Under the pieces are notes generated by a model. The model was given only the letters and a program-made list of their open reading frames with translations. It was not told the origin of the DNA and did no database searches. Positions 7,039 to 56,355 of a stretch of DNA of 64,000 bases are shown here, one piece after another (the first letter of the stretch is position 1; every line of letters begins with the position of its first letter). The DNA is taken from the IMG/VR virus record IMGVR_UViG_3300008107_006173; one strand, 5' to 3'. The position numbers and the translations under genes are program-made. This DNA comes from a virus. Its lineage: Duplodnaviria > Caudoviricetes.

Positions 7039-8617
7039 AAAACATGGGCATGGGTTCATCGTATTCATCTGCAGGTCCGCCAAAGGAATCGTCAATTCCC
7101 AGGCTGCTGTTAACCATACTGTATACATCGTCCTCAAATGTGCCAATATAGCTAATCATACGCATAGCAATAAGCATACTCATAACTAAATCATCATGCT
7201 CACCCGATTTAGCAGCAAAGCCATTGCCCTTAGCAATAAAGGTTTTTAATTCGCCTATTAGAGGTTTACTGTTTATGGTAATTCTGTTTTGTTCCACTAG
7301 TCGCTTAAATATCAATGCAGCATCATTTTTACTTTTTTGACTAGTATGGAAACCTTTACGAGATCGTTTACCCTGAACTTTAACTGGTTCATTTAAGAAT
7401 TCTCCGGGGAAGTTTTCTTCTCCCGTATCACGAATTACTACCAATGCTGCTTCACCAATAGTATTATTTTCCACAGTCCAGTAGATTTGGTATGCGCCTT
7501 GATCTTTAAGATAATGCATAATATCCATCATGGTACGCATCTGCCCCTCAACTGGAGTTTTATTATGCTGCCATTCTGCTACCTGTATCATTGTGGGCAA
7601 TTCAATTACTTGGATAGCAGCAGGGTCGCCGCCAGTTCCAGTGCTTGGATCTAACGCAACTACATACATGTAGGCAGGACTTGGTTGCTTATACCAGCGT
7701 ACCTGTCCCATGCGATATCTAACATCACTCCCTTGCAACTCAACTAGCTTGAGCTGATTGATCAGTGTTTCTTCATAGATAACGAATTCGCATTCGTGCT
7801 CACGACGGAAGCGTTCTTCACCAATACGACCACGCTCTTCCCTAGCCCAGGTATCATCTCTATCTGGATGCTTGTTCCAAACGGCTAACATTGGACGGAA
7901 TCCGTTTACACCAATATCTCGTTCATTACCGTATTCGTCAAAACGATTATTTGCCTGTTTCCAAATCATAGCAAATGTGTCTTCGTCACTGTTAGGTGTG
8001 CTAGTAACAATACATTTACCACCTGTTGCTAGTGTAGGTGATAGTGAAGTCCAAAATTCTTTAGCAATACGAGTAGGAACGAACGCAAACTCGTCTAGGT
8101 ATACTAGCGTTAGGGACATACCACGACCAGTTGTTTCTGTTGTTGTGGTACTTACAATACGACTTCCATTATCAAATGTAATACTACCTTTGTTATATTC
8201 AGTGACACCTGCACGAATATGATCTGGGCAAGATTCATATGCATACCGAATACGCTGCATAATTTCGCTAGCACCTGCCTGTTTATGTGCTGCTACAAGA
8301 ATAGTACTATCAGGTATAAACATTGCGTACCATAGCAAATAGCCTGCGGCAACTGTAGTCTTACCCATCTGCCGGCCTAGCATGTTAATTGACCAGCGAT
8401 TGTTATTATAATTTTCTATTAGTTGAAGCTGATACTCATAAGGTTCAAAAGAAATACCACCCTTAGTAGGATGCTGTATCCTCATAAAGTTGGTCATAAA
8501 AAACAAAGGGCCGTCTTGGGGATGACAGCATAGTTGAAACTCTTTTAGAGTGTTGGTGGTGTAGCTTACTTTACTATAAGCTGGTTTGACAAGGCTAGTA
8601 TCTGCTGTTCCGCGCAT
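7037..8617 (-). CDS. gp17: Terminase large subunit
   Basis: Walker A GRQMGKTT, Walker B VYLDEFAF, nuclease VALDPS and HDDLVMS. Confidence 0.95.
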
Positions 8618-8622
8618 ATCTT

Positions 8623-8630
8623 TATTTAGC
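8623..8630 (-). promoter_or_regulatory. Late promoter GCTAAATA, 5 nt before ATG
   Basis: GCTAAATA-AAGAT-ATG; no Shine-Dalgarno. Confidence 0.65.
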
Positions 8631-8656
8631 GACTAAAACAAACAGTTTTACTGATA

Positions 8657-10339
8657 TTATGATAACCGCTGTGCTAGCTTATCTTTAATAGCATTAATTA
8701 ATGCTGTTTTGTCAGTGGTATATTTAAGATCTAGTGGCTTTGGTCCAGGCACCATAGGGATAGCAACTTCAGCATCGTCACAACCGCATGGTTCTTCAGC
8801 CGGTGCTTCAGGAGCATGTGGTGCAAGAGCTACGGCAACATCTTTCATACTGGGCTCTTGCATTGCGCCGTCGCCATTGTAATTAACACCTGCTAACTTC
8901 AATATGCGATGCAATTCTTCCATATCCTTAGCATTGGCGCTTACTGTTACGCTAGAATCACCAATACGCTTAGTTTGATTAAAACTAATATTTGTATCTT
9001 CTTGCGGGCCTACTGCGCCAGGCATTGTCTCTGGACCCGGTGAATAATAGTTTTCGGGAAGAATAGATGATTTAGTGACCGTTGTTTTAAATACAGCAGG
9101 ATCTACTCCAACTCGTTTTGCAGCAACTTTGTGTGCATGGGCTGTATTTTGTGCTTTGACATGAACTGCCCCAGCATCAACTGATTTGCCAGCATGTTGT
9201 TTAGGGAATTCAACTTTCCACATACTGTATTCTTCATTAACATTATCTTCTGATACTATACGAGCACTTTTTGTTGAAGGTTGATCGCGATAATGATTAA
9301 GTGCTTTATATGCATTTAGTGGATGTACTGGTACACGCTTTGTGTGACCTAATAGACTGACAATTTCAATATATTGCTTACTCTTGCCAGAATCCTCACC
9401 AACTTTATCTGGTGCAGGTAATGCTTCAACATCGCCTACGATGCTTTCATAATCATCCATGCTTAATGCACCATTCTTTGACAATTCAATCATACGCTCT
9501 GCTGCATTGTGCAGATCCATATCTTCTTGTGCATCTTCACGGGCGTATTCCATCATACGAAGTAATAGAGGAACATCTAATGTTACTGTATCAACTTCAT
9601 CATTTTCGCTGTCGGCATCAGTTGGATCTTCATCGCTATCACCTAATGCGTCTTGCGCCATAGTTCCTGCTACATGGCCAACGCCGCCAGCTACACTACG
9701 AGTAACTGCACTTGCGCCGCTGCCAACCACTGCTCGACCAACAGCAGCGCCAATGGCTGGTAAAATTTCATCAAGCTGTTCTGCGCTTTCCATGCGGTCA
9801 TAATGACCTGCTTCTAAATCTTGAATAACTTGCTTGGTCCAAATACTTACATCGCTTGAACCAATTTCTTCTAAACCATCACTGCCGGCAAAATCTGCCA
9901 CATCATTAATAGCAGCCATTACCTTAACTGGACCGTACTTGCCAAGTAGGTCTGTGTGCTGCATCATAATGCGGCGAGTAACTGCGCTAGAAACTGCGTC
10001 AATGCTGTCTTGGTCTTCGGTAACATTCTCAACAGCCTTAACTAACTTTACCATTGCTAAAAACTTTGTTCTTAGTGCAGGATCAGCAAAAATCTTTTCT
10101 AACGCACCAGCAAACGGTGCCAAAGATTGTAATAATGAAGGATTTAGAGCTTTACCTTTTTCTGCTTGATCAATTGCTTGAGCAAATTTTGCATTTGGTT
10201 TTCCGCCTAATGCTCTCGATACAGCGGCTGCACCAGCTCTAGTTTTTGGATCTAGTGGTGCATTTTTTGTTTGTGCAGCTGGAGTGGCAGCTGGAGGCGC
10301 ATTAGTTGTTGCAGCGTTTTGGAATTCTGAAAACTTCAT
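8657..10339 (-). CDS. Modular probable internal head protein
   Basis: Likely start MKFSEF at 10339 with AAGGA RBS; several segments bounded by (L/V/I)xE motifs. Confidence 0.55.
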   Translation of the reverse strand: MKFSEFQNAATTNAPPAATPAAQTKNAPLDPKTRAGAAAVSRALGGKPNAKFAQAIDQAEKGKALNPSLLQSLAPFAGALEKIFADPALRTKFLAMVKLVKAVENVTEDQDSIDAVSSAVTRRIMMQHTDLLGKYGPVKVMAAINDVADFAGSDGLEEIGSSDVSIWTKQVIQDLEAGHYDRMESAEQLDEILPAIGAAVGRAVVGSGASAVTRSVAGGVGHVAGTMAQDALGDSDEDPTDADSENDEVDTVTLDVPLLLRMMEYAREDAQEDMDLHNAAERMIELSKNGALSMDDYESIVGDVEALPAPDKVGEDSGKSKQYIEIVSLLGHTKRVPVHPLNAYKALNHYRDQPSTKSARIVSEDNVNEEYSMWKVEFPKQHAGKSVDAGAVHVKAQNTAHAHKVAAKRVGVDPAVFKTTVTKSSILPENYYSPGPETMPGAVGPQEDTNISFNQTKRIGDSSVTVSANAKDMEELHRILKLAGVNYNGDGAMQEPSMKDVAVALAPHAPEAPAEEPCGCDDAEVAIPMVPGPKPLDLKYTTDKTALINAIKDKLAQRLS

Positions 10340-55131: not shown

Positions 55132-55352
55132 CACGAGCTACCCCCGAAGAAATCGTTACATTTCTCGGTAGGCTAAGAAGCGAGGCAACCGCAATTCATC
55201 TACAGCTCACTGAACTGGTTGTTTACAGTGAAGGTGCCTTTAGCTGGAGTGAAGTGTGGTTCCTTAGCGGCTATGATAGAGAAACTGCTATTAAAGTTAT
55301 CAATGACTTCAATCGCATTAAAGCCGGCAAACCCAAAAACGAATTCCTATAA
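55110..55352 (+). other. -1 frameshift extension of the gp26-like gene (78 codons, gp51/GT-like)
   Basis: A_AAT_TTT at 55110-55116 (plus T_TTT_TTC); hairpin 55123-55181; -1 frame open 55104-55352 with no ATG and first GTG only 31 codons before the stop. Confidence 0.75.
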
Positions 55353-55888
55353 ATTCATTTATACTGTTAAGACCTAAAGGTCTTATCTTACTGCGTTCTT
55401 TCGTTTCGTTTCACTTCACTCATTCACTTGTAAGATATTTTTTTACTTGATTTAATTATTAAGAAGTTATCACGAAAGTGGAGCCATAGTTCACCCCTTA
55501 CGGAGTGAACAAAAAGAAAAGCGTCATCACGATGAGCTTCACCATCTCTAACTCGGGTGCTATTAGGAGGCAGCGAGCCTTTTCCCCCCATACACTTCCG
55601 TCACTGTTATCCCGCGGAAATTAATATAACCTGGTAGAGTTCAGTTATACCAATTTGTGAGTTGCTTTTTCTCAGAGCTCACATACTTTCAATGCCATAA
55701 CGCAGATTGCATCTTTGCGACTGTATCTCCAGATCTGACGCCTTAGTGAACCACTAAGGAATCTCAAGGAGCCCACTACCGTTGTGGGTGCCGTACAGTT
55801 CCTATATTGTGCCTTAAAATGATTTAATTAAAATGCCGGAAAAGGATTTAAAAATGCCATGTGTGCCGTGTGTGCCGTGTATTTGTAG
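55353..55888 (-). ncRNA. Candidate structured non-coding RNA or replication origin
   Basis: ORF-free ~530 nt with at least seven hairpins, GGCAC/T repeats and a GTGAA/CGAAA repeat tract; no recognised family. Confidence 0.4.
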
Positions 55889-56311
55889 TTATAAAGCCTT
55901 GAGCGATTCTCTTAAAATTTGTGAGCTGCCTACTCTAACATTAATGATACCATTATAATATTCATCAGTTTCAAGTACTCGTCTCTCAAATTGTTCACGA
56001 GCTTCTAAATAACTGGCTACACCCCTACTAGGACAAAAATAAAGTATTTCCCTAGTAAAGTTATCAGAGCCCAATTTTACAACATCATCTTTTAAATGAT
56101 CGTTGCTGCCCCAATATTCTCTCCAGTCACTTTCAACCGTGCTTCTACGCTTGTTTTTTCTACCCTTAAGAGGCGGCTTTGTTTTTTTAAATTTTGCTAA
56201 CTTTTTACCAACATATTTTCTATTATTAGTTAAGTTAGTAATTAGATATACAAACGCCTCTGTACCTTCGGGCAAGTCTAATACTGATTGACCTTTATGT
56301 GTCCATTCCAT
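55889..56311 (-). CDS. Small GIY-YIG family endonuclease
   Basis: FVYLITN..RKYVGKK, YWGS, FTREIL, EAREQF, YYNG; start MEW after TAAATA-N5. Confidence 0.8.
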   Translation of the reverse strand: MEWTHKGQSVLDLPEGTEAFVYLITNLTNNRKYVGKKLAKFKKTKPPLKGRKNKRRSTVESDWREYWGSNDHLKDDVVKLGSDNFTREILYFCPSRGVASYLEAREQFERRVLETDEYYNGIINVRVGSSQILRESLKAL

Positions 56312-56355
56312 ACTCATATTTAAATATAGGAATGAACAGCAATATTTGATCTTGG

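Follow-up and report, generated by a model that had tools for sequence, protein, structure and literature searches.

The stretch of DNA analyzed in this study (the window; 64 kb, 40% GC, IMG/VR record IMGVR_UViG_3300008107_006173) belongs to an uncultured jumbo myophage and carries a module of virion genes, mostly on the minus strand. Six of its genes begin with an ATG placed exactly 5 nucleotides (nt) downstream of an A/T-rich box that resembles the late promoters of phage T4, an arrangement referred to as abutting in the following. With the geometry known from T4, late transcripts of these genes would start on the A of the start codon and would thus be leaderless. The identified gene content of the window comprises:

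Head and packaging: TerL, portal, prohead protease, major head protein, gp4-like head-closure nuclease
Tail and neck: sheath, tube, gp15-like sheath stabilizer, gp13-like neck protein (PF26809), two large fiber-like proteins
DNA metabolism: gp32-like SSB, UvsX, SbcC/SbcD-like nuclease, NUDIX; also a SegE-like GIY-YIG endonuclease

TerL shares 57% identity with its counterpart in the Pseudomonas jumbo phage PA5oct, which together with Atu_ph07 and 121Q forms the group of closest cultured relatives. Remoter TerL matches were found in Atu_ph07, in the RaK2/121Q group and then in T4-like phages. Near-identical DNA was not found in the cultured-phage collection; relatives occur by the hundred in IMG/VR and in lake, estuary, and marine metagenomes.

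Late boxes and the late sigma factor

The late-box consensus of the window is tGATAAATAgt with the core (G)ATAAATA, which mostly reads GATAAATA. Thirteen copies of GATAAATA occur in the window, all of them on the coding strand and all intergenic or at gene ends, and the box precedes the genes for sheath, tube, portal, fibers, neck, terminase, and other virion proteins. No conserved -35-like element was detected: the sequence upstream of the box varies freely among orthologues, and in a logo of the 6 nt upstream of it the only conserved base is the G adjoining the box. A putative reader of the box is encoded in the window itself:

59150-60028 (-): gp55-like late sigma factor, 292 amino acids (aa); phrog_12791 'sigma factor for late transcription' with E 8e-96, phrog_234 with E 1e-24

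Compared with T4 gp55 by BLASTP, this protein gave an E-value of 6e-9 and 30% identity over 105 aa; a gp55 homologue is also encoded in each of the relatives G001 and G002. Its gene adjoins an SbcD-like gene (58137-59153) and an SbcC-like gene (56356-58137, minus strand), matching the T4 order 55, 47, 46. The initial annotation had treated the box as a T4-type late promoter, and the gp55-like sigma factor, together with the strand-specific and intergenic placement of the same 8-mer before virion genes, bears this out. Just after the sigma/SbcD-like/SbcC-like block (56356-60028, minus strand), a GIY-YIG endonuclease gene is inserted.

Some variation of the box was observed. A box reading GATAAGTA lies at 24527-24534 (-), 29 nt before the ATG of the divergently oriented neighbor gene 23634-24506, and the same position reads GATAAATA at the orthologous divergent promoter of many relatives. 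An A-to-G variant therefore appears to be tolerated in the late boxes of this clade. The form AATAAGTA, found before gene 11537-12007, likewise recurs in four diverged orthologues of that gene (L257, L263, L276, and L292).

Spacing in the window and among relatives

The six abutting sites named in the initial annotation were all recovered:

Site 1: box GCTAAATA, 8630-8623 (-); spacer AAGAT; ATG 8617-8615; TerL, coding sequence 7037-8617
Site 2: box AATAAGTA, 12020-12013 (-); spacer GTGTT; ATG 12007-12005; 156-aa protein, coding sequence 11537-12007
Site 3: box GATAAATA, 20389-20382 (-); spacer GTAGT; ATG 20376-20374; gp13-like neck/adaptor protein, coding sequence 19618-20376
Site 4: box GATAAATA, 24571-24578 (+); spacer GTATT; ATG 24584-24586; virion protein at the gp14 position, coding sequence 24584-25660
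Site 5: box AATAAATA, 27439-27446 (+); spacer TTGTG; ATG 27452-27454; 208-aa protein, coding sequence 27452-28078
Site 6: box TTTAAATA, 56324-56317 (-); spacer TGAGT; ATG 56311-56309; SegE-like GIY-YIG endonuclease, coding sequence 55889-56311

This list is complete, as a one-mismatch scan of all open reading frame (ORF) starts gave no additional real site. The pattern TAAATA-N5-ATG was observed six times in the window (five of the listed sites and the palindromic mirror of site 6) against 1.56 +/- 1.16 expected from 100 dinucleotide shuffles, none of which (0/100) reached six. The reported lack of a Shine-Dalgarno (SD) sequence also held for all six sites, GGAG, GAGG, and AGGA being absent at distances of up to 17 nt from the ATG.

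The functional labels fared unequally. TerL at site 1 and the SegE-like endonuclease at site 6 were confirmed by sequence matches, and the gp13 label by PF26809 (Phage_T4_gp13) and phrog_211. The product of gene 24584, labeled gp14, is a virion protein encoded ahead of the gp15-like gene. A small terminase had been suggested for 11537-12007 and is unsupported: the protein has no Pfam match, falls into a PHROG of unknown function and is a 'hypothetical protein' in all cultured relatives.

The boxes themselves are not uniform, and the full clade consensus GATAAATAGT is found only at sites 3 and 4. Three of the six either lack the A before TAAATA (GC-, TT-) or contain TAAGTA. Site 1 carries the variant CTAAATA, which has been described as a late-box variant for phage Aeh1 (PMC1524935). 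Site 2 has the TAAGTA variant, and the TAA of its box serves as stop codon of the gp4-like head-closure gene 12016-12537; in the same way, the TAA of the site 5 box ends the NUDIX gene 27018-27443. The weakest box is that of site 6, which is palindromic and hence matches again on the plus strand at 56321-56334. Site 4 heads a divergent unit with a spacer of 77 nt (24507-24583), in which no sigma70-like site was found.

The assignment of the start codons relies on N-termini that are kept from residue 1 or 2 in diverged homologues, SD-led ones included. For example, the N-terminus M-x-x-x-S-L-W-N-P of the gene 24584 product is retained out to the SD-led homologues of PA5oct and Atu_ph07. At site 6, another in-frame ATG is present two codons upstream; the homologues and the Pfam SegE model begin at the ATG of 56311, the model at residue 3 of this form.

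SegE-like GIY-YIG homologues (L347-L422; locus position about 1485-1503) sit on many different viral contigs. In most of them GGTAAGTA, beginning about 16 nt ahead of the gene, is separated from the ATG by 5 nt, and beyond the box the upstream sequences differ. A TAAGTA-type box at 5-nt spacing seems either to travel with this mobile gene or to be selected at it.

In the remaining late genes, namely those for sheath, tube, portal, two fibers, and several virion proteins, the same box is followed by 16-70 nt with GGAG-type sequences. Examples are:

7031-7038 (-): GATAAATA box, GTATT spacer as at site 4, 16-nt leader with AGAGGA; virion protein gene 5747-7009
15097-15104 (-): GATAAATA box, 55 nt to ATG, leader with AGGAG; tail tube gene 14403-15041
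17842-17849 (-): CATAAATA box, 36 nt to ATG, leader with GGGAG; tail sheath gene 15196-17805
50943-50950 (-): GATAAATA box, 31 nt to ATG, leader with AGAGG; portal gene 49181-50911
60131-60138 (+): GATAAATA box, 18 nt to ATG 60157, leader with GGAGGA; virion protein gene 60157-61071

The GGAG leaders that the initial annotation ascribed to high-copy genes are indeed present at capsid, sheath, and tube. The 13-mer GATAAATAGTATT occurs in both settings: at 24584 it is directly followed by ATG, and at 7038 by AGAGGA, a spacer, and then ATG.

Orthologues in several hundred IMG/VR and metagenome contigs retained the box, the five spacer nucleotides, and the ATG, although the sequence further upstream had diverged beyond recognition. 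For the individual families the following was found:

gp13-like: spacing 5 in 83/89 IMG/VR relatives and 77/80 metagenome contigs; the others have leaders of 18-24 nt
24584: spacing 5 in 59 and spacing 7 in 8 of 78; the remainder have the box and a GGAG leader
TerL: spacing 5 in 45 and spacing 6 in 9 of 63; an 18-nt leader in 8
11537: abutting layout in 57/60
27452: spacing 5 in 36/38 orthologue occurrences

TerL orthologues mostly show [T/G/C]ATAAATA at 5 or 6 nt from the ATG, with few GGAG leaders, and 11537 orthologues mostly nATAAATA-N5-ATG. Across 598 box-to-ORF pairs from 37 protein families, the spacing was bimodal, with 5 (in rare cases 6-8) on one side, 16 or more on the other and hardly any values in the gap, which fits a choice between no leader and a leader long enough for an SD. 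Spacing 5 predominates in about 15 of the 37 families.

Switches between the two layouts were observed as well. Orthologues from L023, L038, L043, L048, L064, and L215 retained the box and have a GGAG leader instead. In the tree of the 24584 family (75 relatives; 68 abutting, 7 leadered), about three changes are needed. The family of the 420-aa virion protein 5747-7009 is evenly divided (13 abutting, 13 leadered), the window and 12 relatives having a 21-nt SD leader; it offers a natural paired comparison of both layouts. The orthologous neck genes of PA5oct, Atu_ph07, and 121Q have the box and an SD leader, so the abutting layout is typical of the aquatic clade and not of all PA5oct-like phages.

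A histogram of motif-to-ATG distances in relatives, proposed along with the original claim, was clearly positive with a spike at 5. Two long relatives were examined whole, G001 (250 kb, 66% complete) and G002 (340 kb, 91% complete). In G001, the next ATG followed ATAAATA at distance 5 for 26/101 boxes, compared with 0-4 at neighboring distances; in G002 this was the case for 18/121 boxes, with 6 more at distance 6. Pattern counts were compared, genome by genome, with those of a reversed-pattern control:

G001: ATAAATA-N5-ATG, 27 (control 0)
G002: ATAAATA-N5-ATG, 19 (control 3)
G003: ATAAATA-N5-ATG, 16 (control 3)
PA5oct: ATAAATA-N5-ATG, 8 (control 4)
Atu_ph07: ATAAATA-N5-ATG, 5 (control 2)
SCTP-2: ATAAATA-N5-ATG, 10 (control 8)
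121Q: ATAAATA-N5-ATG, 1 (control 2)
T4: ATAAATA-N5-ATG, 2 (control 0)
HTVC008M: TAAATA-N5-ATG, 14 (control 4)
Syn9: TAAATA-N5-ATG, 3 (control 3)
KVP40: TAAATA-N5-ATG, 2 (control 2)

The spike is shared by the SAR11 phage HTVC008M but not by T4, 121Q, Syn9, or KVP40. Host-type TATAAT boxes gave no spacing peak, indicating that the spacing effect is specific to the late box, and fifteen permutations of the box hexamer gave no comparable peak either.

Probable leaderless initiation and its alternatives

On the reading that we favor, the boxes (nATAAATA, clade consensus GATAAATAGT) would be T4-type late promoters read by the host RNA polymerase with the phage gp55-like sigma factor. For about one gene in ten, the ATG directly follows the fifth base past the box, and transcription would begin on the A of the start codon; the resulting late message, leaderless and without SD, would be recognized via its 5'-terminal AUG. 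Other late genes, capsid, sheath, and tube included, would be expressed from the same box through a leader of 16-70 nt with GGAG. We consider true leaderless late messages from boxes abutting the ATG probable (roughly 65%).

The T4 late box is located at -13 to -6 relative to the transcription start (PMC1524935), and a 5-nt spacer therefore puts +1 on the A of the ATG. This geometry and the conserved spacing partly support the leaderless claim of the initial annotation, in which the site where the RNA begins, and the leaderless translation of it, are inferred. The leadered promoters point in the same direction. Their fifth base after the box is T (61%) and their sixth A (62%), identical to the T-A of TATG in the abutting class, and T-A common to both layouts is the expected pyrimidine-purine initiation pair at -1/+1. 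The spacer is too short for an SD. Abutting starts are ATG in 54/55 cases, and folding over the first 42 nt is weaker in abutting than in SD-led ORFs (-2.54 versus -3.83 kcal/mol at equal GC; Mann-Whitney p = 8e-4); the nearly constant ATG and a 5' end with little structure agree with what leaderless messages are known to require. Of 54 abutting genes, 15, with gene 24584 among them, stand at the head of a divergent unit and lack an upstream gene of the same direction. Base +4 and second-codon bias showed nothing distinctive in abutting compared with SD-led genes.

Several observations weigh against leaderless initiation. Four of the six window boxes are off consensus, one of them being TAAGTA. 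The position of +1 is carried over from T4, whose gp55 is only distantly related to the window sigma factor. About 70% of the abutting genes start no more than about 50 nt after a co-directional gene, and read-through polycistronic messages probably carry them too. About 40% of the ORFs, as crudely called here, lack both a core SD and an abutting box, and SD-less internal initiation seems to be common in these genomes, as far as rough ORF calls can tell. In a metagenome scan, contig ends did not pile up at the ATG, all matches being long DNA contigs with upstream sequence. Leaderless translation is also inefficient in E. coli, from which the host of this phage may differ. No RNA data set was listed as containing window 19000-27999. 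Contigs from three estuary metatranscriptomes were fragments of relatives of 20-80 nt, uninformative as to RNA starts, and an exact-protein look-up returned DNA contigs.

Alternatively, the boxes might be real late promoters whose RNA starts lie a few bases downstream of the T4 position. Promoter transcripts would in that case exclude the neighboring ATG and be of use only to genes further downstream, and the abutting gene would be translated from read-through polycistronic RNA by SD-independent or termination-coupled initiation. Such an explanation draws on the close upstream neighbors of about 70% of the abutting genes, on boxes that supply the stop codon of the upstream gene (sites 2 and 5 of the window; gaps of 4 or 8 nt in G001 and G002), on the many ORFs without a core SD and on the distance between the window sigma factor and T4 gp55. 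It leaves unexplained, however, why the distance is fixed at 5 instead of scattering, why the start is almost exclusively ATG, why 15 abutting genes head divergent units with spacers of 26-150 nt and why T-A recurs at the fifth and sixth positions of leadered promoters. We regard it as unlikely.

A/U-rich tracts ahead of start codons aid SD-less initiation in many bacteria. Since the abutting genes lack an SD, the 8-mer might work mainly in RNA, as an SD-independent enhancer or ribosome landing site that binds, for example, S1, its likeness to a promoter being secondary. This is very improbable: genes with a GGAG of their own have the identical box, flanking G and GT included, at 16-99 nt before them, orthologues switch the box between abutting and leadered positions, an enhancer has no need of single-base spacing precision, and a late sigma gene is present in the window.

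Chance or composition, that is, an AT-rich genome with TAA stops near the next ATG and sites picked by eye, might be suspected from the two of six boxes that contain the stop codon of the upstream gene and from the window alone offering only six cases, but is refuted for practical purposes by the shuffles, by reversed-pattern controls of 0-3 versus 16-27 observed, by the hexamer permutations and by a layout kept across hundreds of diverged relatives.

What leaderless initiation would achieve is a separate question. The suggestion that the layout sets a low output of neck, packaging, and accessory proteins is speculative. The abutting genes of the window (TerL, two neck genes, two of unknown function, and a homing endonuclease) fit low output, given that capsid, sheath, and tube are SD-led; so do those of HTVC008M, which are mostly low-copy baseplate, neck, and accessory genes. 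Against the stoichiometry idea stand the portal, which is SD-led in the window and present in 12 copies in T4-like heads, and the virion-protein family that switches layout.

Comparison with known systems and further observations

The window resembles T4 in having an 8-bp A/T box without a conserved upstream element before its virion genes and a gp55 homologue next to gp47- and gp46-like genes. In T4 late promoters, TATAAATA occupies -13 to -6 and is recognized by gp55 together with gp33 and the gp45 clamp (PMC2988020, PMC1524935). In contrast to T4, the window box opens with G in place of T, and its consensus is the longer GATAAATAGT. Moreover, about one clade gene in ten has a box 5 nt from its ATG, whereas the 169 kb of T4 contain only two such strings.

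Classical leaderless mRNAs, such as lambda cI transcribed from pRM (PMC10491246) and those of mycobacteria (PMC4633059), share the AUG start, which is predicted here, and the lack of an SD. They differ in being transcribed from host sigma70-type promoters and mapped at the RNA level, whereas the layout described here implies a phage late sigma factor and a program of many genes, predicted from sequence.

The closest parallel is HTVC008M, a Pelagibacter (SAR11) myophage. Nine strings were found in its first 50 kb, all at annotated starts of coding sequences (among them 18943, 19456, 31132, and 49760), and the abutting genes include those for head closure, DNA end protector, tape measure, and baseplate. 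Some of its spacers match window spacers exactly, as in TAAATAGTATTATG. It differs in being a 147-kb T4-like phage of the Kyanoviridae and not a PA5oct-like jumbo phage. No mapping of transcription start sites (TSS) was found in the literature for HTVC008M.

Poxvirus late promoters, with their TAAATG initiator, also have a core that overlaps the start codon. As poxviruses are eukaryotic viruses with their own polymerase and 5' poly(A) heads on their transcripts, this is a resemblance only, and no homology is implied.

In PA5oct, Atu_ph07, and 121Q, orthologous neck genes are preceded by the same box, and a gp55-like gene is present; the difference is that their orthologues of the abutting window genes have leaders of 16-32 nt with SD. 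The gp13-like orthologue of PA5oct, for example, has a 32-nt leader with AGAGG. A published study of PA5oct lists sigma70-like promoters only. One clear abutting case was nevertheless found in this phage: EST35_0222 has a perfect TATAAATA, the spacer CGTGT, and then its ATG, all at the edge of a divergent gap of 62 nt (L460:4974-4988, positions 144973-144987 of the PA5oct record), and its annotation names a virion protein detected by mass spectrometry. Its presence in the virion is an indirect hint that protein is made from a leaderless transcript. A second PA5oct gene, EST35_0271 (L460:40251-40268; record 180250-180267, minus strand), has its annotated start five codons upstream of an in-frame ATG that follows ATAAATA and 5 nt, and, from this arrangement, the annotated start may lie too far upstream.

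Late promoters of the T4 type are well known, and so are leaderless mRNAs; a systematic fusion of the two was not found described. Literature searches returned nothing combining 'TATAAATA' with 'leaderless' and nothing combining TSS mapping of Syn9 with late promoters, and a differential RNA sequencing study of phage phiKZ reported no leaderless phage transcripts.

The ribosomal protein bS21 is of interest in this context. It has been tied to anti-SD positioning and to the access of leaderless mRNAs (PMC10491246), and one report, by its title, ties phage bS21 expression to late-stage replication (PMC9723584). Genes for bS21 (PF01165, over cut-off) were found in HTVC008M, PA5oct, G003, G002, and Atu_ph07; they were absent from T4, 121Q, Syn9, and KVP40, and none was found in G001, which is only 66% complete. 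HTVC008M, G002, and G003 are thus the layout-rich genomes with bS21, in a sample that is tiny and phylogenetically non-independent. A two-channel late translation, with SD leaders for abundant virion proteins, leaderless messages for a conserved set of about 10% of the genes and a balance tuned by phage bS21, a protein in contact with the anti-SD, is conceivable but a long shot.

If leaderless late messages are real, abundant and widespread aquatic giant phages as well as a SAR11 phage would express a fixed tenth of their genes leaderless via a phage sigma factor. This would suggest how phages set expression classes within one late program, and the layout may report on translation in uncultured hosts. 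For annotation it means that gene finders expecting an SD will misplace abutting starts. Cultured systems with the same layout exist in PA5oct (EST35_0222; Pseudomonas aeruginosa PAO1) and HTVC008M.

Two further features of the window were noted. Over its whole length, TAATAA is followed by the first ATG at exactly 8 nt in 9/112 occurrences, the top peak among the control hexamers; this probably reflects a double stop codon and a short SD spacer between tightly packed genes. A radical-SAM gene (18572-19612, minus strand) lies between the gp13-like and dNMP kinase genes. It is absent from some contigs with an identical gp13-like protein (L546, L547, and L553), in which the kinase gene comes directly after gp13, and is a strain-level insertion or deletion.

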